From the NCBI GenBank assembly GCA_030603365.1, contig JAUVXV010000012.1:70462-134461 (forward strand): 64,000 bases of DNA. The letters run 5' to 3'. Of the stretch, positions 23,145-62,870 are shown piece after piece. The notes under the pieces were generated by a model, which saw only the letters and a list, made by a program, of their open reading frames with translations, did not search any database and was not told the origin of the DNA. How positions within the stretch are numbered: position 1 is the first letter of the stretch; each line of letters begins with the position of its first letter. A program made the translations under genes and the position numbers. The stretch comes from Candidatus Heimdallarchaeota archaeon (lineage in GTDB: Archaea; Asgardarchaeota; Heimdallarchaeia; Heimdallarchaeales; Heimdallarchaeaceae).

Positions 23145-23198
23145 ATTTATCAAATATACAATAATCTCACTTATTAAATACATTTGTTCAAGACATTA

Positions 23199-24442: not shown

Positions 24443-24525
24443 ATTTATAGTTTGATTTTCTTAAATTTAAATATTACACAATAATCTAGGTAAAAATTTA
24501 AAAGAAAGAAAAAAAATGTTAAATC

Positions 24526-25335: not shown

Positions 25336-25337
25336 AC

Positions 25338-26198
25338 TTACATAATAGGAAAAACAGCAGCCATAACTGCTCCAATCCCCACAGAAACAATAATTGCAGA
25401 ACTAATTTGCCAATGGAAAGTTTCATTGATTTCTAAGGTATTCTTAATTTTTCTTTCTAGCTTTTCTGCAAGCTCTGGAGCACCCGAATGAAGAATAATT
25501 AGATTGTAATCAACTTCGATTGAAGTTTTCTTTCTTATTTCTGATACCATATTTCTTATTGCCCCTTCATATCCTAATCCACCGCCAAATCCCAGAACGC
25601 CTTCATCTAGTTTTACTTTGTATATTGGTTTTATCTTGAATAATGTTGTTGCTAAAGAGATTGGTAATGTTCTTTTTATTTTTCCTGATTTAAACAAATT
25701 CTCAAAGTCATTAGAAAAACCAATTGTATAGATTAAGTTTTTAATAGTATCAAATTGTTTGAAAATTTCATCTATTGTTTTATTTTCTTCAAGCATTTGA
25801 TTGGCTGTAAATATGAAAGGAGCTTGGCTTGGTCCAGCTAATTGAGTTGGATAATAATGGATTTTTAATTTATCGGAAACTCTTTTAGAAGCAATTCTTA
25901 CTGAATTAACTTGATTAGAGATTTTAGGTGTCATAAATGGATAGAGAATTTCCTTATGTCCTTCTTCTATGATCTCTTCAAAAAGTTCAAGAGCTTGATG
26001 AGGAGAGGCAAAACTAGTTGTTGGAAAAGGTTCAAGAGATGGGAATATTTCCATAAATTTGTTAATATCCACTTCAGACAATTCTTTTTTCATTTCTCCA
26101 TTAACTGCAACATTTATCTCTAGAACTGATGTCTTGTTCTTTTGTAAGTATTCTAAGGGAATCTGAGAGGTTGAATCTACCATCAATTTCATTTTCAT
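25338..26198 (-). CDS. DegV/FakB fatty-acid-binding protein (copy 1)
   Basis: DSTS.IP, PTTS..SP, ISNQ.NS, L.KSGKI, IKPI, VG.GA. Confidence 0.88.
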   Translation of the reverse strand: MKMKLMVDSTSQIPLEYLQKNKTSVLEINVAVNGEMKKELSEVDINKFMEIFPSLEPFPTTSFASPHQALELFEEIIEEGHKEILYPFMTPKISNQVNSVRIASKRVSDKLKIHYYPTQLAGPSQAPFIFTANQMLEENKTIDEIFKQFDTIKNLIYTIGFSNDFENLFKSGKIKRTLPISLATTLFKIKPIYKVKLDEGVLGFGGGLGYEGAIRNMVSEIRKKTSIEVDYNLIILHSGAPELAEKLERKIKNTLEINETFHWQISSAIIVSVGIGAVMAAVFPIM

Positions 26199-26358
26199 AG
26201 CAATTTCTGAAAGAATAAATCATTTAAAAAAATATCTAATTGAATACGAATATATCTAATTAATTATATGAAAATGGAAACATTCTTTTACAAAAACACA
26301 AGTACAATTATGAAATTATAAAAGTGAAAAGAAAAAAGAGAAAAAAAGTAATTTCAAG

Positions 26359-27231
26359 TTATTTGATTGAATCTAATGTAGGATAAAGTGTAACCATTGC
26401 AGTGCCATAACCAAGTGTATTTCCAACACATGGTGACATTTGCCAGTATTTCACACTTTCAATTTTCCTGATTTTCTTAAGGCTTTCCTCAAGTTTCTTT
26501 CCTAGTTTTTCATTTTTGACATGAGATATTATCATATTATAGGTTATATTGGCATCTGTTTTCTCTTCTGCAGCTTGAGTGATTTTCTTAATCGATCCAC
26601 CAAAACCTGCACCAGCACCACCACTAGAAAAACCTTTATCTTGTTCACTTGCATAGATAGGCTTCAAACTCATCAATGAAGAAATCATGGACATTTTTAC
26701 AGTCTTCTTAATTCTTCCTGTTCTGAACAAAATATCAAAACTGGTAGAAATACCATTAGAAAAAATGAGCGGTTTCATTTTATCAAGAGTTTTTGTTATA
26801 GTTGCAATAGATTCACCCTTCTCAAGTAATTCTTGAGCATAAAGTATGAAAGGAGCCTGACTTGTAGCAGAATATTCGGTTGGATAATAATGAACTTTGA
26901 GTTTATCTTTTACTTTTTTGTATCCAACTTGTACAGGTGATATCTGATTTGACATTGTAGGGGTCAAATAAAGATAAAGTGCCTCCTTGTAACCTTCATC
27001 AATAATTTGTTCGAATACTTCTAGAGCATCTTGAGGGTTAGCAACAGAAGTTTTGGGTACGGGATTCATTTTCGCCATTTTAGAAACAAAATCTTCATAG
27101 TCAACTTCTGATAACTCTTTAAAGTGTTCACCATCCAGTTCTATAGTGGGTTCAAAGAAAATAATATTCTTTTCTTTAGCGTATTCAATTGGAATCTGAG
27201 ATGTTGAATCGGTAATTATTTTTACTTTCAT
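26359..27231 (-). CDS. DegV/FakB fatty-acid-binding protein (copy 2)
   Basis: ITDSTS, PKTS..NP, L.RTGRI, LKPI, LG.GT. Confidence 0.9.
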   Translation of the reverse strand: MKVKIITDSTSQIPIEYAKEKNIIFFEPTIELDGEHFKELSEVDYEDFVSKMAKMNPVPKTSVANPQDALEVFEQIIDEGYKEALYLYLTPTMSNQISPVQVGYKKVKDKLKVHYYPTEYSATSQAPFILYAQELLEKGESIATITKTLDKMKPLIFSNGISTSFDILFRTGRIKKTVKMSMISSLMSLKPIYASEQDKGFSSGGAGAGFGGSIKKITQAAEEKTDANITYNMIISHVKNEKLGKKLEESLKKIRKIESVKYWQMSPCVGNTLGYGTAMVTLYPTLDSIK

Positions 27232-27560
27232 AGATACCGATTTCCAACAACTTTAGAGATATTTAAAGTTTATCTAATTTTATAAAAAAACATAACAGTA
27301 ATTTCAAAAGATTGGATTTACTTGCAAGAAATATTTCTCTTACTCCTGAATTTATTATCTTCTTTTCCTTCCTTAATATTTACTCTGCGAATACAACTTT
27401 CGAAAAGATTAACTGACATTATTGGAGAGAATTTTTACTATCAATCTAAATGCTAATGTTAAATAACAATATTTGTAAAGATTTTTACGATCTTTAATCA
27501 TTCAAAAACAATGTATGACTACTTAATATAGTTTAAATATAATAAAGAAAAAAAAACTTG

Positions 27561-28427
27561 ATGAAAATTAAAATCACGACAGATGTAACTACTAGTATCC
27601 CAAAGGAAATTGCTGATAAAAATGACATAGAATTTGTTGAATTTTATTTAAATATAAATGGAAAACCAACAAAAGAATTATCAGAGATAAACAGAGAGAA
27701 GTTCATGAATGAAGCTAAATTCATGACTCCTTATCCTACTTCCAATTTTCCTAGCCCACAAAATTATCTTGAAGCATTTCAGAAAGTTGAGGATAATGGA
27801 TATGATGAGATTCTCCATATAGGTCTTAGTTTGAATATCTCTGGAGCATTAAATTCAGCTAGAGTTGCTGCTAAGAGAATTAAGAAAACTAAGATTACTG
27901 TTTATGATAGTGGTATAATGGGACCCAGTCAAGGTACGATGGTTCTAATGGCTAGAAAGCTATTAAAGAAAGGTAAAAGTGTTGAAGAAGTAATTAAATA
28001 TTTAGAATCTGAGAAACTAAAAATTTATGGTGCAGGATGTTCGGAAAATTTTGATATCCTTTTCAAAACAGGAAGAGTAAAGAAAGGTGCAGGCATCACT
28101 GTTATGTCTTCACTTATGAGACTTAAACCTTTGTTTGAACTGAATTTTGAAAAAGGTGTAACAGGAATAGGAGGAGGAATGGGTTTTAGAGGGGCTATTA
28201 AAAAAATAGTTGCCAATATAATTGAAAAAACTGATGATAAAATAACATATGATCTTTTTATGACTGATGCTGGAGCACCTAAATTACTTAAGCGATTAGA
28301 AGAAGAGATTGTTAAAGTAAGAAAGATTAAAAATATTCATTACTGGCCTATGGTTTCTATGATGATTCATACTTGTGGAAAAGGTTCAATAATAGGAACT
28401 TTAAGTCCAACACTAGATGAGATTTAG
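27561..28427 (+). CDS. DegV/FakB fatty-acid-binding protein (copy 3)
   Basis: ITTD.T, PTS..PSP, LS..ISGA.NSA, VYDS, L.KTGRV, LKP, HTCG.G. Confidence 0.9.
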   Translation: MKIKITTDVTTSIPKEIADKNDIEFVEFYLNINGKPTKELSEINREKFMNEAKFMTPYPTSNFPSPQNYLEAFQKVEDNGYDEILHIGLSLNISGALNSARVAAKRIKKTKITVYDSGIMGPSQGTMVLMARKLLKKGKSVEEVIKYLESEKLKIYGAGCSENFDILFKTGRVKKGAGITVMSSLMRLKPLFELNFEKGVTGIGGGMGFRGAIKKIVANIIEKTDDKITYDLFMTDAGAPKLLKRLEEEIVKVRKIKNIHYWPMVSMMIHTCGKGSIIGTLSPTLDEI

Positions 28428-28771
28428 ATCTGTTTAGAATATATCTGGTATATTTGTTTGAAAAAAAGTAAAAGAGTACATTGTAACTAGCTCCATCAAA
28501 CCTCTTTAAGCTCTAGCTTAATTCCAATGAAAGTTACAAGAGTAAGTACAAGTAAAGTAGAACATGTTAGGTAAGCAAGTTAATACCAGATATATTTACC
28601 TAGAGGAAGTATGAATTGAACAGTAAGTACAAATATGTTAAGATATAGATTCTTCTGATTCCATGGAAACAAACTTCCATTGCTGGATATTGCTTCTTCT
28701 TTTTATTCAAGAATAAAAAGCAATTTCAAACGATTGGAGTTACTAAAAAGAAAAGAATAAGGAGAGTCTGA

Positions 28772-29332
28772 TTAGTACCAAACTCTTTTAAAACCCATTT
28801 TGTAACCTATGAAACTGAATAATATATGGAAGAAGAATGTTATACTAGCAAGAATAACAAAGTAGTACCAAAGGTATTCTCCAAAAGGTAGCATGGCTGG
28901 TGCAGCAACTGCAAATCCAGTTAGTATATATCCCATTTGATCCCATGGGAATAGACCACTTCCAGGTTTGATATTGATTCTTCTTTTAATGAATGAACCC
29001 AGCAAATCTGCAATATGATTTCCTATTGAGAAAAGTAATCCAATATATATAGGATAGTTACAAGGGAAAACATTTCCATAGAACCATCCAAGACCAAAAG
29101 GATCAGCAAAGAAAATTGATATAAGCACTCCACTCACTGTACCTCCTATTAGACCAAAGATGATACCTTTCCAGGTTTTATTATCTCCAAAGATTCTTCT
29201 CCCTTTCCAGATTTTTCCACCATCAACAGGTTTACCTCCACCCCATAGATTAGCAAAGGTACTTGTTTGATACATAGGTTGGGCAAAAATAATAGCAATA
29301 AGTATATGCCAGCCGTAAGCAAATTCTGCCAT
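28772..29332 (-). CDS. carS: CDP-archaeol synthase (CarS/DUF46) homologue
   Basis: GGG.PVDGG...GRRIFGD.KTW.G and DL.GSFIKRR...DQ motifs. Confidence 0.88.
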   Translation of the reverse strand: MAEFAYGWHILIAIIFAQPMYQTSTFANLWGGGKPVDGGKIWKGRRIFGDNKTWKGIIFGLIGGTVSGVLISIFFADPFGLGWFYGNVFPCNYPIYIGLLFSIGNHIADLLGSFIKRRINIKPGSGLFPWDQMGYILTGFAVAAPAMLPFGEYLWYYFVILASITFFFHILFSFIGYKMGFKRVWY

Positions 29333-29388
29333 GAGGTATGTGTTAAGAAGTATAATAAAAAGTTTGCGAGTAAATGAAGTAAAAAAAC

Positions 29389-29438
29389 ACACAGCCTAAT
29401 TAATGTGTATTTTACAATACAAGTTAATAAATATGTAT
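29389..29438. promoter_or_regulatory. Two tandem palindromic boxes A(C/T)ACA-N12-TGTAT upstream of satD (candidate operator)
   Basis: ACACA-gcctaattaatg-TGTAT (29389-29410) and ATACA-agttaataaata-TGTAT (29417-29438). Confidence 0.5.
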
Positions 29439-30551: not shown

Positions 30552-32816
30552 TCATTTCTTACTTCTTTTTCTAAATTTTTTGAGACTTATAGATACAACT
30601 GTAATAACTGCAGACATGATAATAATGGAATAAGAATCTATAGTTATAAACGAGTTTGTATCTATATTTGGTATGAAATCAATTATGAAACTTCTAGTTG
30701 GGGTTCTCTTAGACTCATTATAGATGTTCGTATACTCAACATAGTATTCTATTTTAGTTCCATTTGTGAATTCTGAACCGATATTAAGAGAATAAATACT
30801 TTCAGATTCCTTAATCATGCTAGATGAGTTGAACCCCTCATCATTCTGTTCATAAAATAAAACTACTGGATCAATACCTAAATCTCCAGAACAATTGAAT
30901 TGTATAGTTATATCTTTGTCACTCGCTTCAGCATTTAGAATATTGAAAGAATATTCAGGTAACCCATAACTATCTCTTAACCATTCTTCAGCTAATTCAG
31001 GATTGTAATCATACTTGATGATATCATTATAGTAATAATATGAAGTATAAGGATAAAGAACACTATGAGCAACTAAGTATTCTCCATCATGTAGTATTTG
31101 GTTCATTTCATCTCTATTAATTGCGTAGCAGATTGCTTTACGAATTCCAACGGCACGTGTATAATCTTCTTTTCCCTCTGTTTCCATGAAGATAAAATTA
31201 TCTACCCCACCAATAAATGGTCTTCTCAAATTGAATGCCATAAATGTAAGACTGTTTGATAGTTTCTGATAAACTGTGAATCTGGGATCAGTTTCCATAT
31301 TTTTCCTTTCAGCTGGGAATGCAGTTATACGTGTCCAATCAAGTTTCCCTGCCTTGAATTCCATAAGTTCTGCAGAAGTATCAGGAATAACTCTAACATT
31401 AATTGTTTCAACAAAAGGAACCAAACCGGCTTGACCATCAAATGCACCAACTCCAAACCAGTATGGGCTTTGCTTTAGAACTGTTATTGAGTTTTGAATG
31501 TAGTAATCTAACATATACTTACCACAACCAAATGCAGAAGTACTGAATGCTAACCATTGATCAGTATTGATGATTTGCGAATACAATCCTTTGCACTCTA
31601 TTCCACTCTCAGTATATGTGATTTCAAGTAAGGTAGAATTGAGGAAAAACTCTGGTAGAATACTACTAGTCATTCTACTCCAGAAGTCAACATAATAATC
31701 TGGTTCTGCTGTTTCTGGAATTCCATCAATATGTATATGAAACGCTAAAGGATCAAATGGATCAACGTAACAATCTGAAATCCATTCATGCCCTATTGTT
31801 TCTTCACTCACAGCTTGATTACCCCAACAAAGAAATGTAAAAACAGCATCTTTAGCAGTAACTTGTTGATTAGTGCCATTACTGTAATTTCCTTTAAGCC
31901 CAACCATCAATTGATTGATATCTGATGAATTCAAAGGAGAAGATCCTGAAGTTCTTCCTGTGACATTAAAAGATGGGTTCCAATACACTTCATCTCTCAT
32001 ATAGAATTTGAAATGGAAGTCATCAATTTTTTCCCAATTATCTATTAAACCATTCTTTACAGGAGCAAGATCTGGACTGAATTGTAGGATTGGTTCAGCC
32101 ATTAAACTCCAGATGAATGAACTAGAAGTATCGTCAGTAAAAAGAGGATTGAGTTCTCTCCAGTTTGCATCAGCTAGGTTGAACTCATTTAATGATACTT
32201 GACCTTCATGATAGCCATCATATGACATATATGGTAAACAGTTAACAATACCCCATCTGGCATCATAACCAAGCGTATTTGCCCAAGTTACAGAATAAGA
32301 ATTAGGTGAGTACAAAGGTAACATGGGTACGATTTTATCCATCATAAGTTGTTGCCAATCATAATAAAGCTGTTGTCTAACTTCAAGATCAGTAATAGTT
32401 ACACCAAGATCTTGCATTTGCTCACTTTGGTTACCATATGGTAAGTCTGGACCTAATCTAAAAATATTCAAAGTTCCATCTTCTGTATAGAGCTCTCTCA
32501 TATCTGGAGATGCTCCACCTCCAGAAATACCAACAATTCCTAAATCCCAATCATTTAAACTCCAGGGATCCCACGGCCAGGACCACTCTTGCACTTTGAC
32601 TTCTACATCTATGCCAATCTCTCTCAGATACATTGCTATGTATAACCCATAATCTGGTCTAACACCACCACCATAAGTTTCCAAAACAAGATTGGCAATT
32701 GGTTGATTTATTTCAGAGAATATAATAGAAGGAGTTATGGAAATTGCACTTAAACTTGTTATAAAAACTAAAGTTATTATTAATCTCATCTTATTTCTTG
32801 AAACTGTTTTTCCCAT
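30552..32816 (-). CDS. Family-5 solute-binding protein, circularly permuted, extra Ig-like domain and C-terminal TM (copy 2)
   Basis: Same motif set and order as copy 1. Confidence 0.88.
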   Translation of the reverse strand: MGKTVSRNKMRLIITLVFITSLSAISITPSIIFSEINQPIANLVLETYGGGVRPDYGLYIAMYLREIGIDVEVKVQEWSWPWDPWSLNDWDLGIVGISGGGASPDMRELYTEDGTLNIFRLGPDLPYGNQSEQMQDLGVTITDLEVRQQLYYDWQQLMMDKIVPMLPLYSPNSYSVTWANTLGYDARWGIVNCLPYMSYDGYHEGQVSLNEFNLADANWRELNPLFTDDTSSSFIWSLMAEPILQFSPDLAPVKNGLIDNWEKIDDFHFKFYMRDEVYWNPSFNVTGRTSGSSPLNSSDINQLMVGLKGNYSNGTNQQVTAKDAVFTFLCWGNQAVSEETIGHEWISDCYVDPFDPLAFHIHIDGIPETAEPDYYVDFWSRMTSSILPEFFLNSTLLEITYTESGIECKGLYSQIINTDQWLAFSTSAFGCGKYMLDYYIQNSITVLKQSPYWFGVGAFDGQAGLVPFVETINVRVIPDTSAELMEFKAGKLDWTRITAFPAERKNMETDPRFTVYQKLSNSLTFMAFNLRRPFIGGVDNFIFMETEGKEDYTRAVGIRKAICYAINRDEMNQILHDGEYLVAHSVLYPYTSYYYYNDIIKYDYNPELAEEWLRDSYGLPEYSFNILNAEASDKDITIQFNCSGDLGIDPVVLFYEQNDEGFNSSSMIKESESIYSLNIGSEFTNGTKIEYYVEYTNIYNESKRTPTRSFIIDFIPNIDTNSFITIDSYSIIIMSAVITVVSISLKKFRKRSKK

Positions 32817-32946
32817 ATCATATTTCACCTATAATTTTCTCTTGTATCTCAATTATCACTTTACAAATAATAATAGTAAAAATAATTATTAACACTAGCT
32901 TAAGATTGTTTCATGACTGTTTTTTGACATTCTTAGGATTGTTAAG

Positions 32947-35175
32947 CTAAGTTGCCAATTTTCTTTTTTTTGCAATTAAATACGGTATTAAAAGAATTAA
33001 ACCAAATAGGGAGAAAGATATAGTTACTGATGGTAAAGTTGTATATTCCGTTCCTACTATAAAGAAATAATCAATTGAAATAAACTGCCCTACTTTTGCT
33101 GTTGCAATTTTAAGATAAAACGTCACATTATCAGTGATGTTGAAAGATGAGCCAAAGTTGTATACAAACACATTGTCATTTTCTTCGTTCATACTGTGCT
33201 CTTGCCAGTTATTACTATTAATTTTGTAGCGAACAACTGTGCTGACTACATCAGCTGAATCCCCATAATCAATAGTCAGGGTTATGTTATCATGAAAGTT
33301 ATTCTTATTTTCAATATCAACAGTAAAATCAGGAATACCTCCAAGAACTGCGCCTAACCACTCTTTTGATTTATCAAGATTGAAATCATATTTGATAATA
33401 TCATTGTAATAATAATATGCAGTATAAGGAAAGAGGACACTATGAGCAATTAGATATTCACCGTTATGTAGTATCTGATTCATTTCATCTCTATCGATTG
33501 CATAACATATGGCTTTACGAATAGCAACACCAACAGTATAATTCTCTTTACCTGGTTCGTTCAACCATTCAAAATTGCCAGTACCACCTATCAGAGGTCT
33601 TCGAATATCGAAAGCTAAAACTCTCAAACTATTTGAGATGAAGGTTTGAATATCATATGTAGGATCACCCCAAGGATCCGATAATGAACTCACTTGGTCT
33701 GCACTACACCAATCTAGTTTACCTTCTACAAATTCGTTGAATTGATCTATTTCATTAGATATAATTAGAATATTTATAGTTTCAATATCTAAGTCTTGAG
33801 TTGTACCATCAATACCTCCAATACCTAGCCAGTTAGGATTTTTTCTTAGAACAGTGATAGAATCTTTAATAGAATAATCTAGCATATACTTTCCACATCC
33901 AAATGCAGAATAAGAATAATTGCTCCACTGTGGAGTCTCAACAATTTCTGGATAAAGTCCTCTACATTCAGCGCCTCCATCTGTATAAGTGATATCTGAT
34001 CTTGAGGAATTTAAAAAGAATTCAGGTAGAAAACCAACATTCATTTTAGACCAAAAATCAACATAGTGTTCATTTTGTGGCGTATCTGGGAGACCATCTA
34101 TGTGAAGGTGGAAAACTAGAGGATCAACTGGATCAACATATAAATCTGATATCCAGTCATAGGAGTGAGATTCCTCATTTAGAAGGTTGCTCGCCCAGTA
34201 GGAAAGCGTAAAAACTGCGTCTTTCGCAGTTACTTGTTGATTTGTACCATCACTAGTCTCATTATTCTTAAGTCCCTTCATAAGCTGTTCAGCAGGTACA
34301 GCGCTTAATGGGATAGATCCTTCATCTCTTTCTGTTGTATTGTAAGATGGGTTCCAATAAACATTGTCTCTCAAATAGAATTTATAATGAAAATCTTCCA
34401 CTTCTTCCCAATCAAAAACTATACCAGTTATTAGTGGAACTAGATCGGGACTAAACTGTAAAACAGGTTCAGATACAAGATCCCAAATTAATTCTTCAGA
34501 TTCATCATTAATTCGAGATGGAAGAAGATCCCCCCAATTATTCCCATGCATATTGAATTCAGTAAGAGATGTTTGACCTTCGTGATAACCTTCATATTCC
34601 ATGTAAGGTAAGGAACCTGCAATTCCCCATCTTCCTTCATAGCCTAAGGTATTACCCCATGTTGCTACATACTTTCTCTGTGCATACAGTGGTAACATTG
34701 GAACTATTTTATCCATCATCAATTCTTGCCAATCATAATAGTGCTGTTGTCTTTGATTCAAATCTGTAATGTTAATTCCTTCTTGCTGCATCTGCTCACT
34801 AAGAGCACCATAAGGAATATCAGGAGCAAGAAGGAAAATATTCTTTGAACCTCCATCAGTGTAATACTCCCTCATATCAGGGGAATCACCGTCATCCTCA
34901 AAATCAACAATCCGCATATCAAAACTAGGCAAACTGGGTATACCTGGAAATACAGACCATTCTTCTGTTTTAACTTCAATATTCATTCCAATATCTCCAA
35001 GATATTGAGCAATGTAAAACCCATAATCAGGCATAACTCCCCCTCCTTCTACCATTAGAACGAAATTGGCAAAAATAGATTTGGATAAATCAATCTCACT
35101 ATTTACATAATTCATAGGAGTACTCAAGAAGGCTATTATCAATAGCGTGCATAGGATTTTTCGTCTGCAAACCAA
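32947..35175 (-). CDS. Family-5 solute-binding protein, circularly permuted, extra Ig-like domain and C-terminal TM (copy 3, most diverged)
   Basis: Same motif order; VTAKDAVFT, IRKAICYAIDR. Confidence 0.87.
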   Translation of the reverse strand: MVCRRKILCTLLIIAFLSTPMNYVNSEIDLSKSIFANFVLMVEGGGVMPDYGFYIAQYLGDIGMNIEVKTEEWSVFPGIPSLPSFDMRIVDFEDDGDSPDMREYYTDGGSKNIFLLAPDIPYGALSEQMQQEGINITDLNQRQQHYYDWQELMMDKIVPMLPLYAQRKYVATWGNTLGYEGRWGIAGSLPYMEYEGYHEGQTSLTEFNMHGNNWGDLLPSRINDESEELIWDLVSEPVLQFSPDLVPLITGIVFDWEEVEDFHYKFYLRDNVYWNPSYNTTERDEGSIPLSAVPAEQLMKGLKNNETSDGTNQQVTAKDAVFTLSYWASNLLNEESHSYDWISDLYVDPVDPLVFHLHIDGLPDTPQNEHYVDFWSKMNVGFLPEFFLNSSRSDITYTDGGAECRGLYPEIVETPQWSNYSYSAFGCGKYMLDYSIKDSITVLRKNPNWLGIGGIDGTTQDLDIETINILIISNEIDQFNEFVEGKLDWCSADQVSSLSDPWGDPTYDIQTFISNSLRVLAFDIRRPLIGGTGNFEWLNEPGKENYTVGVAIRKAICYAIDRDEMNQILHNGEYLIAHSVLFPYTAYYYYNDIIKYDFNLDKSKEWLGAVLGGIPDFTVDIENKNNFHDNITLTIDYGDSADVVSTVVRYKINSNNWQEHSMNEENDNVFVYNFGSSFNITDNVTFYLKIATAKVGQFISIDYFFIVGTEYTTLPSVTISFSLFGLILLIPYLIAKKRKLAT

Positions 35176-40788: not shown

Positions 40789-43077
40789 TTAATTTCTTTT
40801 CTTTCTTTTGTATATAGATAGGATAACAAGCATTGCAATGGAATAAAGGATAAATATAGTTGAGCTATGGCTTACTACAGTTGTTGGATTTGTGGTAGTT
40901 GTTGGAATTGTTGGTGTAGAAGTAACAATCAACTCAGTCGTATTAGAAATAAATTCAGAGGTATCTGTCAAATGGACTTCATCATATTTGTTCGTCATTT
41001 CTATAAAGAATGAAATTGTCACATTTTCTTGGAAAGTTTTACTGATGCCACAGGTAAAAACATCTTCAGCTTCTTCGAGCATAGATACTGTTTCTTGGGA
41101 TCCTCCATTAATAGTGTATTTCAGAACGCAATCAGTAATTCCTGGTCCGGATGTACAATCAATTGTAACTAAAATGTCTTCGGAAGTAAGATATTGATTC
41201 TCAATTTCTATAGAGTAAAAAGGTAAACCAAGTGCCGCTCTTAGCCATTCTTCTGCTAAAACTGGATTGTAATTGTACTTGATAATATCATTATAGTAGT
41301 AGTATGCTGTGAATGGATAAAGAACACTGTGAGCAAGAAAATATTCTCCATCATGAAGTTGTTGATTTATCTCATCCCGGTCGATAGCGTAACATATAGC
41401 CTTTCTGATTCCTACCGCTCTTGTATATTGAGTTTTTCCTGGTTCTGGTATATATTCAGCATTATAACCTCCACCGATAAAAGGACGTCGTAGGTTGAAA
41501 AACATAAAAGATAAACTTGCTGTGATAAAAGTCTGTACATTAAATCTTGGATCTGCTTGCATAATTTTTCTTTCAGCTGGGAATGCGGTTAGACCGGTCC
41601 AATCCAATTTTCCTGCCTTGAATTCTGCTAATTCAGCAGAGGAATCAGGAATAATACGAACGTTGATTGATTGGATATTTAAATCTTGGACAGCACCATC
41701 AATTGCGCCTACACCAAACCAATGAGGACTTTTTTGTAGAACTGTTACGGAGTTTTTGATGTAGTAATCTAACATATACTTACCACAGCCAAATGCGGAT
41801 GTACTGAATGTAGCCCACTCAGGTGTGTTTAGCATTAGTGGATATAGACCAACACACTCAATTCCACCATCTGTGTATGTTACAGTTGGATCTGTTGAGT
41901 TCAAGAAGAATTCTGGCAAAATGTCCCATGGGAGTCTTGCCCAAAAGTCTGCGTATTGTTCGACTTCAGGGGTATCTGGATTTCCATCTATAAGAACATG
42001 GAATTGCAACGGATTTACTGGATCAACATAACATTCAGAGATCCAATAATGAAAAGTTGTACTTTCACTGATTGTTGGGTTTGACCAAAGCAGATAGGTA
42101 AAAACTGCATCTTTAGCAGTAACTTGTTGGTTAGTACCATCGCTGTATTCTCCATATTTCAAACCTAGCATCAATTCACCTGTTGGAATGCTGCTTAGTG
42201 GGTCAGAACTTGCTGCTCTTCCAGTAACGTTGTAGGATGGGTTCCAATAGACATCGTCTCTCATGGTGAATTTGTAATGGAATTCATCAATTTGTTTCCA
42301 ATCTTCAACTAGACCAGTTTTTAGAGGTGCAAGATCTGGACTATATTGCACAATGGGTTCAGCCATAAGACCCCAGATGAATGAACTTGATGTATCATCT
42401 GTGAACAATGGGTTGAGTTCTCTCCAATTTGCATCTGCAAGATTGAATTCAATTAATGATTCTTGCCCTTCATGATAACCATCATATTCCATGTAAGGTA
42501 AGGAATCAGTTATTCCCCATCTACTATCATACCCCTCTGTATTTGCCCATGTTGCTACATAGGATCTTGGTGAGAAGAAAGGTAGTATTGGAACTATTTT
42601 GTCCATCATTAACTGCTGCCAATCGTAATAGAGCTGCTGTCTTTCTTCAAGGTCAGTTATTGTAACACCAACTTCTTGCATTTGTTCACTTTGGTCATTA
42701 TAGGGAATTTCAGGGCCTAATTGAAATATATTCAAAGAACCATCCTCTGTGTAAATATCCCTCATATCTGGACTTGCACCTCCACCAGATAATCCAATGA
42801 ACCCCAAATCAAAATCATGAGTAACTAATATAGTATTTATAAAAACTGGCCATTCTTCAACTTTGACCTGAACATCTATTCCTATATCATTTAGATAACT
42901 AGCAATGTATAAACCATAATCTGGTCTTACACCTCCGCCACTAGTTTTGAATACTAAATGTGCTAGTTGTTGATTTATTTCAGAATTTACATTAATAACA
43001 TTTGATGAAGATGAGCTTAATATAAATATGATTTGAAATATTGTTAGAATTACTATCTTTTTCTCTCTTTTACTCAT
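40789..43077 (-). CDS. Family-5 solute-binding protein, circularly permuted, extra Ig-like domain, Thr linker and C-terminal TM (copy 4)
   Basis: Same motif set and order as copies 1-3. Confidence 0.88.
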   Translation of the reverse strand: MSKREKKIVILTIFQIIFILSSSSSNVINVNSEINQQLAHLVFKTSGGGVRPDYGLYIASYLNDIGIDVQVKVEEWPVFINTILVTHDFDLGFIGLSGGGASPDMRDIYTEDGSLNIFQLGPEIPYNDQSEQMQEVGVTITDLEERQQLYYDWQQLMMDKIVPILPFFSPRSYVATWANTEGYDSRWGITDSLPYMEYDGYHEGQESLIEFNLADANWRELNPLFTDDTSSSFIWGLMAEPIVQYSPDLAPLKTGLVEDWKQIDEFHYKFTMRDDVYWNPSYNVTGRAASSDPLSSIPTGELMLGLKYGEYSDGTNQQVTAKDAVFTYLLWSNPTISESTTFHYWISECYVDPVNPLQFHVLIDGNPDTPEVEQYADFWARLPWDILPEFFLNSTDPTVTYTDGGIECVGLYPLMLNTPEWATFSTSAFGCGKYMLDYYIKNSVTVLQKSPHWFGVGAIDGAVQDLNIQSINVRIIPDSSAELAEFKAGKLDWTGLTAFPAERKIMQADPRFNVQTFITASLSFMFFNLRRPFIGGGYNAEYIPEPGKTQYTRAVGIRKAICYAIDRDEINQQLHDGEYFLAHSVLYPFTAYYYYNDIIKYNYNPVLAEEWLRAALGLPFYSIEIENQYLTSEDILVTIDCTSGPGITDCVLKYTINGGSQETVSMLEEAEDVFTCGISKTFQENVTISFFIEMTNKYDEVHLTDTSEFISNTTELIVTSTPTIPTTTTNPTTVVSHSSTIFILYSIAMLVILSIYKRKKRN

Positions 43078-43141
43078 GATTTTTAAAGCAAACATGTGTA
43101 ATGATTAATTTTACAAATTTTAAATCTTTCTCCTTTAATTT

Positions 43142-45384: not shown

Positions 45385-46359
45385 TTAATCAATTACATCC
45401 CATTTTCTGCATCGACTACCCCAACGAGCTATCAAAATATCATTTCTACGTATCTCAACAATTTCACAAATATTTGAACATCCATCACATTCAAATCCAG
45501 AAGTATTGAAGTCCATTTCTGAGATATCCCAGCTTTTAAAATTCGATTGTTTGGGATGTTTAGCAAAATCTTCTTGAGCAAGGATAGCTGAACCTATAGC
45601 ACCCATTACATCATAATGTTCTGGTACGATAACCTCCTTCTGTAAGAAACTTTCAAAAGCTTCTCGCATACCAATATTAGCAGCTACTCCTCCTTGGAAC
45701 ATAATGGGGGATCTAATTTCTTTACCTTTTCCAACATTGCTCATATAATTCCTAGCTAATGCCTCACAAAGACCTTTGATTATATCATGAGTTGGATGCC
45801 CTAATTGTTGTTTATGAATCATATCACTTTCAGCAAATACCGTACATCTTCCAGCAATAGAAACAGCATTATCAGATTGTAAAGCTAGTTCGCCAAAATT
45901 TTCAATAGGTATGTCTAATCTGTTTGCTTGCATATCTAGAAAAGAGCCCGTACCAGCGGCACATACCGTGTTCATGGCAAAGTCTACAACGATACAATTC
46001 CGTATGATAATGATTTTGCTATCTTGTCCACCGATTTCAATTACAGTTTGAACATCGGGATCATAATGTAAGGATGCTAAAGCATGAGCGGTTATTTCGT
46101 TCTTAACAATATCAGCACCTATTAGAACACCTGTAAGTTTCCTAGCACTCCCAGTTGCCCCTGCTCCTGTAACATCAAGGTCTTCTCCAAGCTTCTCTCG
46201 TAAAATTTTAATTCCATTTTGAACTGAATCCACAGGTTTACCTTCAGTTCGAATATAAACTGATTCAATCAGCTCTTTTGAGTCATCAATTAATGCTAAA
46301 TTGGTACTTATAGATCCAACATCAACACCAAGAAAATATTTTTCTTCACTAACAGTCAT
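45385..46359 (-). CDS. Acyl-CoA dehydratase activase (BadF/BcrA ASKHA ATPase, 4Fe-4S) with C-terminal 4-Cys extension
   Basis: GVDVGS.ST, NEITAH, EIGGQDSK, MN..CAAGTGSFL, RCTVFAES, GGVA.N, GA.G.A; C-terminal CDGCSNIC...GSRC. Confidence 0.92.
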   Translation of the reverse strand: MTVSEEKYFLGVDVGSISTNLALIDDSKELIESVYIRTEGKPVDSVQNGIKILREKLGEDLDVTGAGATGSARKLTGVLIGADIVKNEITAHALASLHYDPDVQTVIEIGGQDSKIIIIRNCIVVDFAMNTVCAAGTGSFLDMQANRLDIPIENFGELALQSDNAVSIAGRCTVFAESDMIHKQQLGHPTHDIIKGLCEALARNYMSNVGKGKEIRSPIMFQGGVAANIGMREAFESFLQKEVIVPEHYDVMGAIGSAILAQEDFAKHPKQSNFKSWDISEMDFNTSGFECDGCSNICEIVEIRRNDILIARWGSRCRKWDVID

Positions 46360-46377
46360 TTTTCTATCTCCATAAAT

Positions 46378-47469
46378 TTAAATTCCAGTTCCTTTGTTCC
46401 TTTTACGTTCTAATAAATCAACAAAAGCTTCCAACCTAGTTTGAATGCCTGCCTCTCCTGTATGCTCATCAAGAACCAACGATAGAACAGGCATATCATG
46501 TTCTCTACTCACTTGAGGTAAAATGCTTCTAGAAATTATCTCAGGCATGCAAGTAAAGGGATACAAATGAATAACTCCATCCCAACCTTGTTCTTTAAAC
46601 TCAACAACGCTACCAAGTGATTCTCGAGTTTTTCCTCCAAGAGGATATCTTACATATGGTTTTGCATGTTTTATGCAAGATTTATAATGCCATTTCTTGA
46701 AGGGATTCATTCTTTGACCTAAATCTATCCATCTTGTGAAAGTAATCGGTGTAAAAGCTACTACGCCTATATCATTCAATCTTCTCATAATATCTAGATT
46801 GATAGCCGGTTCCACAACAGCATATAATTCTCCAACTATTCCAACCTTCAATGGATTAAGTTCCTTATCAATTTCTACTTGATCATCAAATGTTTTTTGG
46901 ATGATTTCTGGAAGCATTCTGACATTTTTCATTCCATCAGTTTCAACAACAGTTCTGTAGAGTTTGTGAGCAACATTGTAAGCAGTTCCTTTTTCTATTT
47001 CAACAGCTCCATAGCTATAGAGGAGTTTATCGATGAGGTCGATGTATCGATTCTTAATCCAGCCCACCCTAAATGCTTGGAATGCTTGAATAGCATTGAC
47101 ATTACAAGCTAGTTTTTTAAAACTTCTAAAGAAATCTACCTTATCAAACCAGTCCAGATTAATTAGATCAAATTCATATCCCAAATCTTCAAGAATTATT
47201 TTGTAAAGTGGAGAGTAATATCCCAATCTACAATAATCCACAAAAACTGTTGCAACTATCTCATAAGCTCCTTGTTCTAATACTTCTATAATTGAGCCAA
47301 GTAGCATTTTAAAAGGTGTACATACAAATTCAGAAGAAACTTGGGAACCTAACTGTTTTGTCCTGTAGGTTGGTTCATTTGGTACAATAACATCATCTCT
47401 TTTCATCCCTCTTGCAATAGATTCAAATACATAGGTAAAGGTTCCAACGTACGGAAAGGATAATGGCAC
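46378..47469 (-). CDS. 2-hydroxyacyl-CoA dehydratase-fold reductase subunit (COG3581/PlsR-like)
   Basis: C.PFK..LG, CR.GYY, VGELY, PFTCMPE, DEHTGEAG..TRLEAFVD; GTG start after AAGGAGG. Confidence 0.82.
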   Translation of the reverse strand: MPLSFPYVGTFTYVFESIARGMKRDDVIVPNEPTYRTKQLGSQVSSEFVCTPFKMLLGSIIEVLEQGAYEIVATVFVDYCRLGYYSPLYKIILEDLGYEFDLINLDWFDKVDFFRSFKKLACNVNAIQAFQAFRVGWIKNRYIDLIDKLLYSYGAVEIEKGTAYNVAHKLYRTVVETDGMKNVRMLPEIIQKTFDDQVEIDKELNPLKVGIVGELYAVVEPAINLDIMRRLNDIGVVAFTPITFTRWIDLGQRMNPFKKWHYKSCIKHAKPYVRYPLGGKTRESLGSVVEFKEQGWDGVIHLYPFTCMPEIISRSILPQVSREHDMPVLSLVLDEHTGEAGIQTRLEAFVDLLERKRNKGTGI

Positions 47470-47482
47470 TTTTTTCTCCTCC

Positions 47483-48523
47483 TTAGATATGAACCTGAGC
47501 TGTAAGAAATACTGTTTGTTTCTCAATACTTCGTCTTAGCATATCCACAAATGCTTCAATTCTAGTTCTCATACCTGCTTCTCCTGTTAATTCATCAAAA
47601 ACAAGCTGTAGTAGAGGAATAGTTGTATCTCTTTTCGAAAATCTGGAGGCTATTTCTCCTGCAATAGAATCTGGACCACAGCTAAAGATCATCAAATGAA
47701 TAATTCCATCAACTGTTTTACTTTCAAGAAAGTGCATGATAGTTCCCAGAATTTCGCGCTCATAATCGAAGTAAATATCATACTCAAGCCTAGCCATTTG
47801 TTTCTCAATTAATATCCTAGGCATTTGCTCTGAAGTAATTATATCTACACCATATTCTTGCAATAATGAACGAATATCTAATGATGAAAACGGATCATTC
47901 AGAACATATGAATGACCAACTAATGCAATCTTTAAAGCCTTATATTTTTCATTGTAAATTGGAAAATCATTTAGAATTGTTTCACTGTTTTCCCATCGAT
48001 TCAAAGTTTCTTCATCTATTATCAAAGATCTTTCATGTATCTTCTGAGCTCTAAAAGCTCTTGTAATTGCTCTGATTCTTGTTATTGGATTCTTTGTAAA
48101 TATTTTACCTAGTCTAAATGCTTTAATCACAAGTCCAATCCGTGTACTTCTATCCATCCCACGATTGTAATGTGGCATAAGAATATCTGGTAACTCAGGT
48201 AACATGGATTGCAAAACTTCAGCCAAACCTATAAATTTCGGACAACCAACATATTTCTTTCTGCGTCCACCATATCGAGGAATAAACAAAAAATCTACTT
48301 GATCCTTTAAAGCAATTGCGTGACCAAAGTATAACTTAGTAGAATAACAATCTTCATCAGGAGCTAATTTCACAGCATCATCTTTGATCTTCTTAGTTGT
48401 TTTTGGAGAGACTATAACTTCAGCGCCTAACTCTTTGAAGAAGGTTATCCATAAATCTGAATACTTATAGTACAGTAAAGCTCTTGGAATTCCCACCCTA
48501 ATCTTTGTTTCCAACTTGGACAT
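47483..48523 (-). CDS. DUF2229 (COG3580) CoA-enzyme activase-related/reductase subunit
   Basis: VGIPRALLYY, VSP.T, C...K...GH, CPKF.GL, GHSY...D, FSCGPDS, DE.TGEAG..TR.EAF. Confidence 0.85.
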   Translation of the reverse strand: MSKLETKIRVGIPRALLYYKYSDLWITFFKELGAEVIVSPKTTKKIKDDAVKLAPDEDCYSTKLYFGHAIALKDQVDFLFIPRYGGRRKKYVGCPKFIGLAEVLQSMLPELPDILMPHYNRGMDRSTRIGLVIKAFRLGKIFTKNPITRIRAITRAFRAQKIHERSLIIDEETLNRWENSETILNDFPIYNEKYKALKIALVGHSYVLNDPFSSLDIRSLLQEYGVDIITSEQMPRILIEKQMARLEYDIYFDYEREILGTIMHFLESKTVDGIIHLMIFSCGPDSIAGEIASRFSKRDTTIPLLQLVFDELTGEAGMRTRIEAFVDMLRRSIEKQTVFLTAQVHI

Positions 48524-59146: not shown

Positions 59147-60151
59147 ATGAAAGCGATTGTATATGAAAAATACGGACCACCTGAAGTTCTGGATGTAAAA
59201 GAAGTTGAAAAACCAACTCCGAAAGACAATGAATTGCTGATAAAAGTACATGCAGTACATGTAAATTTTGGGGATATTATTGCTAGAAATATGGGAAACG
59301 TCTCCCCTCGCAAGTTCCACATGCCTTTCTTATTCTGGTTGATTGCAAAATCATTTTTTGGTTTTAGAAAACCTAAAGTAAAAATCCTAGGAAATGAGTT
59401 TGCAGGGAAAATTGAATCAGTAGGCAAAGATGTTGAACAATTTAATGCAGGAGACGAAGTTTTTGGATATGTTGGTATGAATATGGGCGCATATGCTGAG
59501 TATCTATGTGTTCCTGAAAAAGGCACAGTAGCACTGAAACCTACCAATATGAGTTATGAAGAAGCTTCTACCGTTTCTGGTAATTCTATGACTGCTCGGA
59601 ATATTATGAGTAAAGTAGACATTCAGAGTGGACAAAAAGTACTCATCAATGGAGCTTCTGGAGGGATAGGAAGTATTGCATTACAGATTGCCAAAAACTC
59701 CGGAGCAGAAGTTACAGGAGTATGTGGTACACCAAGATTGGAAATGGTAAAAGCTCTTGGAGCGGACAAAGTGATTGATTACACTAAAGAGGATTTTACA
59801 CAAAGCGGAGAAACATATGATCTTATTTTCGATGTACTAGGTAAGAGTTCATTTTCACGTAGTAAAAAAGTGCTAAATAAAAAAGGAATTTATCTTTTAG
59901 CCAACTTTAAGTCTAAACAGCTGCTGCAAATGTTGAGGACTAAGATAATAGGTAGGAAGAAAGTAAAATGTGCTTTATCAATTGAAGAAGATATAGATGC
60001 TATCAAAGAGCTAGTTGAAGCGGGGAAGATTAAATCGTTCATAGATAGAAGTTTTCCTATGGAACAAGCTGCTGAGGCTCATGACTATGTAGAAAAAGGG
60101 CTTAAGAAAGGATATGTTGTAATAACTTTTAACAATGAAGGCAAAAACTAA
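59147..60151 (+). CDS. NAD(P)-dependent MDR alcohol dehydrogenase/quinone reductase-like (copy 1)
   Basis: [31 protein letters not shown]. Confidence 0.92.
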   Translation: MKAIVYEKYGPPEVLDVKEVEKPTPKDNELLIKVHAVHVNFGDIIARNMGNVSPRKFHMPFLFWLIAKSFFGFRKPKVKILGNEFAGKIESVGKDVEQFNAGDEVFGYVGMNMGAYAEYLCVPEKGTVALKPTNMSYEEASTVSGNSMTARNIMSKVDIQSGQKVLINGASGGIGSIALQIAKNSGAEVTGVCGTPRLEMVKALGADKVIDYTKEDFTQSGETYDLIFDVLGKSSFSRSKKVLNKKGIYLLANFKSKQLLQMLRTKIIGRKKVKCALSIEEDIDAIKELVEAGKIKSFIDRSFPMEQAAEAHDYVEKGLKKGYVVITFNNEGKN

Positions 60152-60195
60152 CAATCCTGAGTAATACTTAAATCATCTACATTGAATGTTTTCTC

Positions 60196-61113
60196 ATGAA
60201 AGCGATTGTATATGAAAAATATGGTCCTCCTGAAGTTCTTCAACTCAAGGAGGTAGAAAAACCTATCCCTAAAGATAATGAAGTGTTGATAAAAGTACAT
60301 GCTTCAACAGTACATGCAGGTGACGTGAGAATGAGAAGTTTTACAGTTCCTCCTGCGGAATGGCTCATGGCACGATTATTTCTAGGTATTAGAAAACCAA
60401 AGAGAAGTATACTAGGGATGGAGCTAGCTGGGGAAATTGAGGCAGTAGGCAAGGATGTAAAGCTATTCAGTGAAGGTGACCCGGTTTTTGGATCTACTGG
60501 GATGAATTTTGGTGCTTATGCCGAGTACACATGTCTGCCTGAAAAAGCGGTACTGGCAATAAAACCGGCCAATATGACCTATGAGGAAGTTGCCCCTATT
60601 CCCAATGGGGGAATAACAGCATTACATTTTCTTAGAAAGGCAAACACCCAGAGCGGACAAAAAGTGCTTATCTATGGCGCTTCTGGAAGTGTAGGTACTT
60701 ATGCGGTACAGCTTGCCAAGTACTATGGGGCAGAAGTTACTGGGGTATGCAGTACTGCTAATCTGGAATTGGTCCAATCTCTGGGCGCCGATAAAGTAAT
60801 TGATTATACTCAAGAGGATTTTACTCAAAGTGGAGAGCTTTACGATATCGTCTTTGATACCGTTTTGAAATTATCGAAATCAAATTGCAAGAAAGCTCTA
60901 TCTCCGGACGGGAAATTCTTAACAACAAGGGGAATACATAAGCAACATGTTGAGGATTTAGACTTCCTCATAGAACTTATGGCGGCAGGAAAGTTTAAAG
61001 CGGTCATAGACAGAAGCTATCCGTTGGAACAGACTGCCAAGGCTCACAGATATGTCGAAAAAGGACACAAAAAGGGAAATGTAGTAATAACTGTGGAACA
61101 TAATAGCAAATGA
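60196..61113 (+). CDS. MDR dehydrogenase (copy 2)
   Basis: Same motifs; [17 protein letters not shown]. Confidence 0.92.
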
Positions 61114-61246
61114 CAACCCGTACCGTAGAAACATCGCCACTTATTTAAGCAAGAATCGCAGGGTTGCGGGCGCGCTACAAGTGATAAAAATAAGTAGTAG
61201 AAAAGTAACACTGTTTATTTTGATTCATAATGGAGGTGATTGAATT

Positions 61247-61624
61247 ATGGAAGATGTGAAGATAAAGCTTTCAGCGTTATGGGTAGCGCACATGTTAAGT
61301 ACTACTTATGCGGATGTGCTGCGATTATATGACCCGGGAGAAGTTGGAGGTATGCAAATCACTCATGAATTTATGTTGGTATCTGCAATAACTATGGTGA
61401 TTCCGATTTTTATGGTTTTCCTGTCCCTGACATTGAAATATAGAGCGAATCGCTGGGCAAACATGAGCGTAGGCATATTCTGGGTTGGTTATGATCTCTT
61501 GTTTTTGATCTCAAGTATGGCAAGTCCCGCTTTTGAGATATTTTTGGGAATTGTATACCTTATGTTTGCTGCACTGATTGTTTGGCATGCATGGAAGTGG
61601 CCTAAACAGGAAAGTCAGCCCTAA
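61247..61624 (+). CDS. DUF6326-like four-TM membrane protein
   Basis: KLS.LW...M....Y.D, IP..M..LS..L....NRW.N, AWKWP; SD GGAGGTGA. Confidence 0.75.
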   Translation: MEDVKIKLSALWVAHMLSTTYADVLRLYDPGEVGGMQITHEFMLVSAITMVIPIFMVFLSLTLKYRANRWANMSVGIFWVGYDLLFLISSMASPAFEIFLGIVYLMFAALIVWHAWKWPKQESQP

Positions 61625-61892
61625 TATCATACTTTCATTGTTCGACTGCAATCCTCTTTTCTCTTTTTTCTTTTTCACCAGAAAACAGTAGCATTAGATA
61701 TTCTCTTAAACAAACAATCAAAAACTAGTTAGATGCAGACATGCCCTGTGTGGTTGCTAAACTAGAACTGTCTTCCATGGAGTCTTATAAGCTGCGAAGT
61801 ACATTGTAAAGAGTGGAAGTCACACCTTAGATAGGGCTAGTTCGGGAGATATCTTCATCGCGCGCGATCAAAGCAATCTTGGAGGAATATTT

Positions 61893-62870
61893 ATGAAAGC
61901 AATTGTATGCACAAAATACGGGTCTCCGGAAGTTCTTCAGCTCAAAGAGGTAGAAAAACCTGCTGCCAAGGATAATGAAGTACTGATAAAAGTTCATGCG
62001 GCATCCTTAAACGCAGCTGACTTTGAATACCTGAGAGGTGTGTTCTTTGTCCGTCTAGCGGCGCCTATTAAACCAACATTCAAGATATTCGGATCTGACA
62101 TAGCCGGGCGGGTTGAAGCGGTTGGCAGAAAGGTAAAGCAGTTTCAGCCAGGTGATGAGGTGTTCGGGGACCTATCCCTGTGTGGTTTTGGTGCTTTTGC
62201 TGAGTATGTATGTGCCAGTGAAAATGCATTAGCGCTGAAATCGGCCAGTATGACATTCGAGGAAGCAGCGGCCCTACCTCAAGCGGCCGTCCTCGCCCTG
62301 CAGGGTCTTCGCGATAAAAGACCGATTCAGCCAGGACAAAAGGTTTTGATCAATGGTGCGGGTGGTGGTGTGGGTACGTTTGCGGTGCAGATTGCCAAAT
62401 CATTCGGGGCTGAAGTGACAGGCGTGGACAGAGCGATGAAATTGGACATGCTGCGCTCGATTGGTGCAGACCAGGTCATTGATTACACTCAAGAAGATTT
62501 CACTAAAAATGGGCAGCATTATGACCGGATTCTTGATGTTGCGGCACATCACCCGATTTTCGATTGCAAGCGTGCATTAAGTCCCAAGGGAATTTATCTC
62601 ATGGTCGGAGGTTCCACAGCTGCAATTTTCCAAGGTTTTTTACTAGCACCATTGATTTCAATGACCGGGAGTAAGAAAATGGGTATCCTGATGCATAAAC
62701 CAAACAAGGATTTGGCTTTTATAAAAGAACTTTTTGAAGCCGGCAAGGTCGTACCTGTCATAGATAGACGTTACCCGTTAAGTGAGGCGGCTGAAGCTTT
62801 CCAATATCTTGAAGAAGGACACGCCAAAGGAAAATTAGTCATAACTGTGAAACATAATAACAAAACCTAA
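61893..62870 (+). CDS. MDR dehydrogenase (copy 3, high GC)
   Basis: INGAGGGVG, GAD.VIDYT, GHAKGKLV; SD GGAGG. Confidence 0.92.
   Translation: MKAIVCTKYGSPEVLQLKEVEKPAAKDNEVLIKVHAASLNAADFEYLRGVFFVRLAAPIKPTFKIFGSDIAGRVEAVGRKVKQFQPGDEVFGDLSLCGFGAFAEYVCASENALALKSASMTFEEAAALPQAAVLALQGLRDKRPIQPGQKVLINGAGGGVGTFAVQIAKSFGAEVTGVDRAMKLDMLRSIGADQVIDYTQEDFTKNGQHYDRILDVAAHHPIFDCKRALSPKGIYLMVGGSTAAIFQGFLLAPLISMTGSKKMGILMHKPNKDLAFIKELFEAGKVVPVIDRRYPLSEAAEAFQYLEEGHAKGKLVITVKHNNKT

Follow-up and report, generated by a model that had tools for sequence, protein, structure and literature searches.

What reaction might be catalysed by three adjoining genes, RED, DEH and ACT, which encode two reductase-type subunits and an activase in the genome of a Candidatus Heimdallarchaeota archaeon? 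The genes lie in a stretch of 64,000 nucleotides (GenBank assembly GCA_030603365.1, contig JAUVXV010000012.1, positions 70,462 to 134,461 of the forward strand), here called the window. The original prediction, made from the letters of this DNA, likened them to the anaerobic plasmalogen synthase PlsA/PlsR and to Ger, a reductase of glycerol esters, and suggested for them a role in turning lipid esters into ethers. We consider it probable, with appreciable room for other readings, that the operon encodes a split ATP-driven reductase of the PlsA/PlsR/Ger superfamily, which would turn the esters of fatty-acyl glycerolipids into ethers of the vinyl or alkyl type. The ester-to-ether role remains the best reading of the locus, and draws on gene neighbourhoods in other members of an Asgard clade, on the phenotype of Bacillota and on genes for substrate supply.

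A split relative of PlsA and PlsR

The three genes are co-oriented on the minus strand of this Heimdall-group Asgard window, in the order RED-DEH-ACT and separated by gaps of 13 and 18 nt, as first described. Together they carry the DUF2229 (PF09989) reductase domain and the BcrAD_BadFG activase of the PlsA/PlsR/Ger superfamily, along with two paralogous three-cysteine reductase units in the cysteine contexts of PlsA and a four-cysteine module. RED and DEH are paralogues (hhalign probability 99.9), and the three spaced cysteines already seen in each do not vary across the homologues aligned, 23 and 21 respectively (RED C59/C94/C282 and DEH C50/C80/C307); both proteins terminate in the DE.TGEAG..TR.EAF.D tail. 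The same three columns are fully conserved in 22 split RED and 22 split DEH rows and in 15 rows of the first (Red1) and 14 rows of the second (Red2) reductase domain of fused proteins, and DEH has the CR-type second cysteine in common with Red2/PlsR. In profile scans ACT matched BcrAD_BadFG (E 3.6e-49) and exceeded the cut-off of TIGR00241, and it scored far under the NCBIfam cut-offs for class I benzoyl-CoA reductase subunits and methanogenesis marker 15.

The C-terminal module of ACT (C291/C294/C298...C317) had been held to be missing in classical HgdC, and this was borne out: of 115 full-length split activases 112 have it, as does the canonical PlsA of Listeria, Fusobacterium and Collinsella, but none of 11 HgdC/YjiL-type activators. 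An Atlas search with the tail returned unnamed matches only, all <0.9. Taken alone as a marker of PlsA-type enzymes, the tail is weakened by Actinomycetota (Solincola-type; loci L020, L024 and L037, where L, G and C numbers denote loci, genomes and contigs), in which four-Cys-tail activases adjoin canonical HGD-D pairs.

These Actinomycetota, and the overall fold and activase family held in common, are what could be said for a role in amino-acid fermentation as a 2-hydroxyacyl-CoA dehydratase (HgdABC/HadBCI/FldBCI type), a reading that we nevertheless regard as very improbable. The same Actinomycetota genomes hold DUF2229 genes elsewhere. The HGD-D matches of the two subunits are marginal and confined to the C-terminal part (33 and 24 bits, against 145-285 bits for canonical pairs), where a full-length match would be expected of a dehydratase, and ACT is longer than the activator of about 260 aa without a C-terminal Cys module that marks a dehydratase system. 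Furthermore, genes for a CoA-transferase or an acyl-CoA dehydrogenase are missing from the neighbourhood, an HgdABC-like set is encoded separately on contig C15, and the trees described below exclude Hgd-type rows.

Phylogenetic comparison with dehydratase types, which had been proposed at the outset, placed the split proteins apart from Hgd-type rows (support 99-100) and beside PlsA/PlsR, in trees from FastTree and a short IQ-TREE LG+G4 search whose supports include neither bootstrap nor the approximately unbiased test. Listeria PlsA, taken from a plasmid-collection record, served as proxy for characterised PlsA, the Clostridium perfringens and Enterococcus faecalis sequences being outside the trees, as were Ger of Thermotoga maritima and Desulfatibacillum alkenivorans; the outgroup of the reductase tree consisted of YjiM/DCCP-type, Azoarcus and clostridial pairs, with the characterised HgdAB chains outside. 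In the reductase tree split RED grouped with Red1 (99) and split DEH with Red2/PlsR (84), with Hgd-type rows apart (99), and in the activase tree the split and fused set was separated from the HgdC type (100). In a concatenated tree the split systems formed one clade beside the fused ones (100), within which 17 Asgard split systems formed a single clade (99). Profile comparisons agreed: the split-RED profile covers the full PlsA Red1 (domain E 1e-29 to 1e-54) and the split-system profiles cover much of Red2, while HgdAB-type subunits were matched weakly, mostly over the last ~70 residues. Structural models of RED and DEH (predicted local distance difference test scores 89 and 87) have the HadBC/BzdNO/DCCP fold, at 10-16% identity over structural alignments and TM-scores of about 0.5-0.6; none of the PDB entries matched bears the name PlsA or Ger.

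The operon nonetheless differs from each known system. PlsA/PlsR (CPE1194/1195 in C. perfringens; a single gene in E. faecalis, Lactococcus cremoris and Listeria) resembles it in the activase, the four-Cys module and the two three-Cys units with the same cysteine contexts, but has two fused, diverged activase domains where the operon has three genes with one activase, probably forming a symmetric homodimer. Ger (Tmari_0479 of T. maritima; SHJ90043 of D. alkenivorans) has the Pfam set PF01869, PF09989 and PF06050 in common with the operon, but in alkyl-ether producers it joins two activase domains and DUF2229 in one chain (BBD; PMC13159169), whereas the lone activase of the operon is encoded by its own gene. 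HgdABC/HadBCI, class I benzoyl-CoA reductases and DCCP:DCCP-R (PDB 1HUX, 4EHT, 3O3M, 8S02, 9GAI and 7YZM) share the ASKHA activase and the two-domain, three-Cys iron-sulfur fold, but lack DUF2229, have activators without the four-Cys tail and form separate clades. In Bacillota (Moorella, Fervidicola and others; PMC13274423) the PlsA homologues with a single activase represent the same three-gene system, with ACT 60-64% identical; the Asgard copies differ from them in forming their own clade and in having several paralogues, and the bacterial copies are seldom near lipid genes. The operon is thus predicted to work like PlsA/PlsR, and the likeness over HgdABC that the original prediction saw holds in both profiles and trees, but strict membership of PlsA/Ger is unsupported, because the split form sits outside the fused clade that holds all validated enzymes found, which are fused two-activase forms.

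The features of the operon are collected in Table 1. The ORF caller had started DEH at a TTG at 47526; comparison of orthologues favours the GTG at 47469, which stands behind AGGAGG. A promoter scan of the operon with bacterial-type signals gave hits at chance level. The amphipathic-helix scan was passed by 99 of 112 split RED proteins as against 2 of 12 HgdAB-type subunits, and the segment is helical in the RED model; the helix is weak evidence, however, because none of eight fused Red1 domains passes the scan.

Table 1. Genes and sequence elements of the split operon, numbered from the first letter of the window
Feature	Position	Strand	Description
RED	47483-48523	-	ATG start, 346 aa; DUF2229/PF09989 (E 2.9e-41) and HGD-D tail (Pfam); corresponds to the first reductase domain in PlsA/Ger
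DEH	46378-47469	-	363 aa; second Fe-S subunit, paralogue of RED; counterpart of PlsR/second reductase domain
ACT	45385-46359	-	324 aa; ASKHA ATPase activase; GVDVGS, IEIGGQD, cluster Cys133 and Cys172
Shine-Dalgarno-like AGGAGG/GGAG element	47475-47480	-	between the RED stop and the DEH GTG start; from sequence
Four-Cys module of ACT, CxxCxNxC...GxRC	45409-45489	-	C-terminal; equals the linker behind the second activase domain of fused PlsA
Basic amphipathic helix, RED residues 142-159	48047-48100	-	threshold set in this analysis; may contact the membrane (predicted)

Gene neighbourhoods and lipid phenotypes

A block with three DegV genes and CarS does exist about 16 kb from the operon, as reported, but the argument for a lipid role drawn from it does not stand. 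In four genomes of the same genus (G018, G021, G023 and G030) the orthologous operon continues into the genes found at 18.5-30.5 kb of the window, with no DegV/CarS block between, and this synteny rules out proximity as an argument; moreover, one DegV within 16 kb carries little weight because the genome has 13 DegV genes. The block itself (window 23582-29392) comprises a hydrolase, a MobA-like protein, the three DegV and CarS, and close relatives lack it in this interval; a further cluster of four MobA-like paralogues lies on C9.

Better evidence comes from other members of the Asgard clade. In the Loki branch PlsC-type acyltransferases lie near 15 of 17 split loci, often in the order HAD-PlsC-RED-DEH-ACT-PlsC, and in the complete genome of Ca. 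Lokiarchaeum ossiferum two PlsC-type genes stand directly upstream of the split operon. Three genomes of family f7 have a DegV and a PlsY-family gene ahead of the operon (counted as one event), a DegV lies directly upstream of an operon 69-80% identical to the host copy in G015, and the split copy of P. syntrophicum is preceded by SCP2. There are four separate associations with acyl-lipid genes in the Asgard clade, and related genomes among them are not independent.

All three split genes occur together in at least 60 of 80 mostly bacterial loci, among which spoVA is the most frequent neighbour in Bacillota (10-12/80 loci). In spore-forming Bacillota (L023, L027, L032, L033, L039, L041, L082 and others) the split operon is often found immediately downstream of sigF-spoVA, on the same strand. 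The spoVA association could be taken to favour a low-potential reductase or radical enzyme driven by ATP that acts on an unrelated, non-lipid substrate, the lipid neighbours being specific to some paralogues. That the HadBC fold serves in dehydration, benzoyl-CoA reduction and small-molecule reduction would fit such a role, as would the four DUF2229 systems of the host genome, which suggest divergence. We judge it distinctly unlikely, since acyl-lipid neighbours recur independently in both branches of the Asgard clade, including the operon 69-80% identical to that of the host, and the characterised DUF2229 enzymes found in the literature all act on glycerolipids.

Lipid analyses exist for two bacteria whose genomes, of unstated completeness, hold two split triples each and no fused form, Moorella thermoacetica and Fervidicola ferrireducens, with proteins 60-62/32-35/35-38% identical to those of the host operon (ACT/RED/DEH). 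Both yield dimethylacetals, assigned by the authors to plasmalogens, and from Moorella a dialkyl glycerol ether (C31) was obtained as well (PMC13274423 Table S1). Plasmalogens correlate with the presence of a single activation domain (PMC13274423), and the functional link of these homologues is that correlation. An ElbD-like multidomain frame is absent from both genomes, and no other ether-forming family was found in Moorella (AgpS was not searched).

Several observations weigh against ester-to-ether conversion by the operon. Its proteins are just 31/23/24% identical (ACT/RED/DEH) to Listeria PlsA, and the split clade is the sister of the fused clade, outside canonical fused PlsA of the Listeria, Fusobacterium and Collinsella type. 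No lipid gene directly adjoins it, and its neighbours shift among close orthologues; the 80 mostly bacterial loci had a single PlsC-like gene within 7 kb, and neither DegV nor PlsY. Two complete single-contig genomes of the host family lack the split system and have the fused form only. The dimethylacetals could alternatively derive from free aldehydes, and the Moorella genome examined is from a different strain to the one whose lipids were analysed. The literature search found no assay of any split system. Analysis of cultured P. syntrophicum showed archaeal lipids only, as summarised in PMC13400652, and 1-OH fatty alcohols and N-glyceroyl alkylamines are further products of Fervidicola and Moorella (PMC13274423 Table S1).

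These alcohols and alkylamines would suit a system with the same reductive chemistry whose product is not a glycerol ether: acting on a lipid-type acyl group, whether an ester, a thioester or an acyl-phosphate, it would give a long-chain aldehyde or alcohol, or it would tailor another lipid. An acyl-acyl carrier protein (ACP)-reductase-like gene near the operon in three Bacillota loci points the same way, the DegV, SCP2 and acyltransferase neighbours are compatible with any acyl-chain role, and ethers may already be supplied by a fused paralogue in the host. Thioesters can be reduced by NAD(P)H enzymes without ATP-driven electrons, whereas oxygen esters require such electrons, which counts against this alternative. 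So do the dialkyl glycerol ether of Moorella, given the lack of another ether-forming family noted above, and the recurring neighbours, which are glycerophosphate acyltransferases (PlsC, PlsY) and go beyond acyl carriers. We hold it to be unlikely, and retain the formation of ether lipids from glycerolipid esters as the favoured role.

Some further genes were recorded around these loci. Just to the left of the window, L010:6859-9238 encodes a protein of 308 aa without a Pfam family, followed by a PAP2-type phosphatase after a MobA-like protein; the Bacillota members of this 308-aa family are paired with the acyl-ACP-reductase-like gene near the split operon, and the latter gene was not found in the host genome. 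Within the window, four paralogues of the family-5 solute-binding type, which carry C-terminal anchors and lack adjacent permease genes, are encoded at 21147-23183, 30552-35175 and 40789-43095, and three tandem NAD(P)-dependent alcohol-dehydrogenase-like paralogues at 59147-62870, where the final genes toward the contig end appear to differ in composition.

Paralogues and substrate supply in the host genome

The host genome (3.65 Mb, 89% complete) belongs to a member of the Heimdallarchaeia. The best match of ACT is in a Heimdallarchaeota metagenome-assembled genome (86%), and the operon is native because its orthologues, 78-91% identical, hold syntenic positions across the genus; together with the single Asgard clade, these orthologues rule out contamination or a very recent transfer. 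Split systems were found in 26 of 30 genomes of the host family (f1) and in 12/12 of f7. The five remaining families of the class gave none, and Lokiarchaeia-type families have them widely (161 of 400 Asgard genomes).

The genome encodes four DUF2229 systems. Besides the operon there is another triple on C15, C11 has a RED-DEH pair that lacks an activase, and C2 (C2:2940-7127) encodes a fused protein of 1395 aa with the BBD, two-activase domain architecture of Ger. In four genomes of the same genus (L349-L352) the fused Ger-like gene lies directly upstream of the glycerol-1-phosphate (G1P) dehydrogenase gene on the same strand, with a gap of about 80-110 nt in three and about 440 in one. This adjacency ties the predicted fused enzyme to the archaeal stereoisomer of the lipid backbone, and makes the C2 gene a better housekeeping candidate than the split operon. 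The split system is not essential, because of the two single-contig family genomes mentioned above; since these complete genomes carry the fused form only, and the fused gene precedes that for G1P dehydrogenase, the split operon looks accessory, and is probably a paralogue with an accessory or specialised role alongside the fused Ger-like gene. Elsewhere, a Paraclostridium plasmid (L118:3599-7477) encodes a fused two-activase DUF2229 protein without the four-Cys module or a full second reductase domain, and ABC transporter genes adjoin it.

Genes that could supply an acylated substrate are present in the host genome: a 3371-aa megasynthase of the fatty acid synthase/polyketide synthase type, three PlsY-family proteins and, besides the DegV genes, two CarS. 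Two FakA N-terminal (DAK2) kinase domains stand alone, with none of the C-terminal domains of FakA, at C1:291953-292636 and C9:146302-146946, and a DAK2 match occurs in 31/31 genomes of the family. G1P dehydrogenase scored above its NCBIfam cut-off, and a UbiA protein resembling digeranylgeranylglyceryl phosphate synthase (DGGGPS) fell under its own. PlsC was not found in the host genome, and GpsA in none of 31 genomes. Geranylgeranylglyceryl phosphate (GGGP) synthase was not found in the host genome either, and gave one convincing match among 30 relatives in f1, as against 19 of 22 genomes in family f5. In family f7 neither GGGP synthase (0/12) nor a G1P dehydrogenase match (0/12) was found, and each genome has 4-13 PlsY-family genes. 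A strict rule by which the split system replaces GGGP synthase was rejected, as f4 genomes mostly lack both and two complete f1 genomes lack the split system. Bacterial PlsY accepts G1P (PMC13400652), and acyl-G1P is a plausible substrate.

As a tentative extension, which we rate as somewhat unlikely, the host family may have dropped GGGP synthase: by way of the megasynthase, FakA-like/DegV proteins and PlsY, G1P would be acylated with fatty chains that are made in the cell or salvaged, and several PlsA-like systems, the operon included, would then reduce the esters to vinyl or alkyl ethers.

Proposed mechanism and meaning for the lipid divide

The scheme proposed here starts from the observed domain set, cysteine ligands, fold and phylogenetic position, and its remaining steps are conjectural. 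By analogy with HgdC/HadI, whose motifs are present, ACT would be a homodimer in which two chains share one [4Fe-4S] cluster, and ATP hydrolysis would drive single electrons of low potential; the four-Cys tail may relay the electron or dock ACT on its partner. RED and DEH, with the fold and cysteines described above, would pair as a heterodimer of the HadBC fold with two three-Cys clusters, probably at the membrane surface, and we infer an open iron in the single [4Fe-4S] cluster that RED would carry. The megasynthase or FakA-like/DegV acyl supply, with PlsY, would provide the substrate, which would probably be built on G1P. Two one-electron reductions, protonation and loss of water would convert the ester carbonyl into a vinyl ether (plasmalogen), following the mechanism proposed for PlsA/R (PMC8788747), and further reduction of the vinyl ether would give an alkyl ether. 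By comparison with the single-activase Bacillota, a vinyl ether is somewhat more likely as the product than an alkyl ether.

The pathway is not as undescribed as had been supposed. Ger homologs in Loki- and Heimdallarchaeota, with the hypothesis of bacterial-type ether lipids there, were published in 2022 (PMC13159169), and single-activase PlsA homologues were discussed in 2026 (PMC13274423). A search that fell short of most subscription journals found no paper testing the split three-gene system or describing its Asgard clade. The operon is, as judged from sequence comparison, a real variant of a known enzyme type with a predicted function, in a lineage relevant to the lipid divide.

How the archaeal ancestors of eukaryotes shifted from isoprenoid ethers to fatty-acid lipids is open, and Asgard lipids have scarcely been measured (PMC12993045). 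The host lineage is among the close relatives of eukaryotes and seemingly lacks the first enzyme of standard archaeal lipid synthesis, and the operon is a candidate for a membrane-lipid route of non-archaeal type. If split PlsA-like systems do reduce lipid esters, a third, ancestral-looking architecture of anaerobic ether-lipid synthase would be assigned, plasmalogens in Bacillota without fused PlsA would be explained, and Asgard lineages without GGGP synthase would gain a concrete fatty-chain route to ether membranes. Were the host family indeed to build its membranes without GGGP synthase, its lipids would be fatty-chain ethers with the archaeal stereoisomer of glycerol, perhaps combined with an isoprenoid chain from the DGGGPS-like enzyme.

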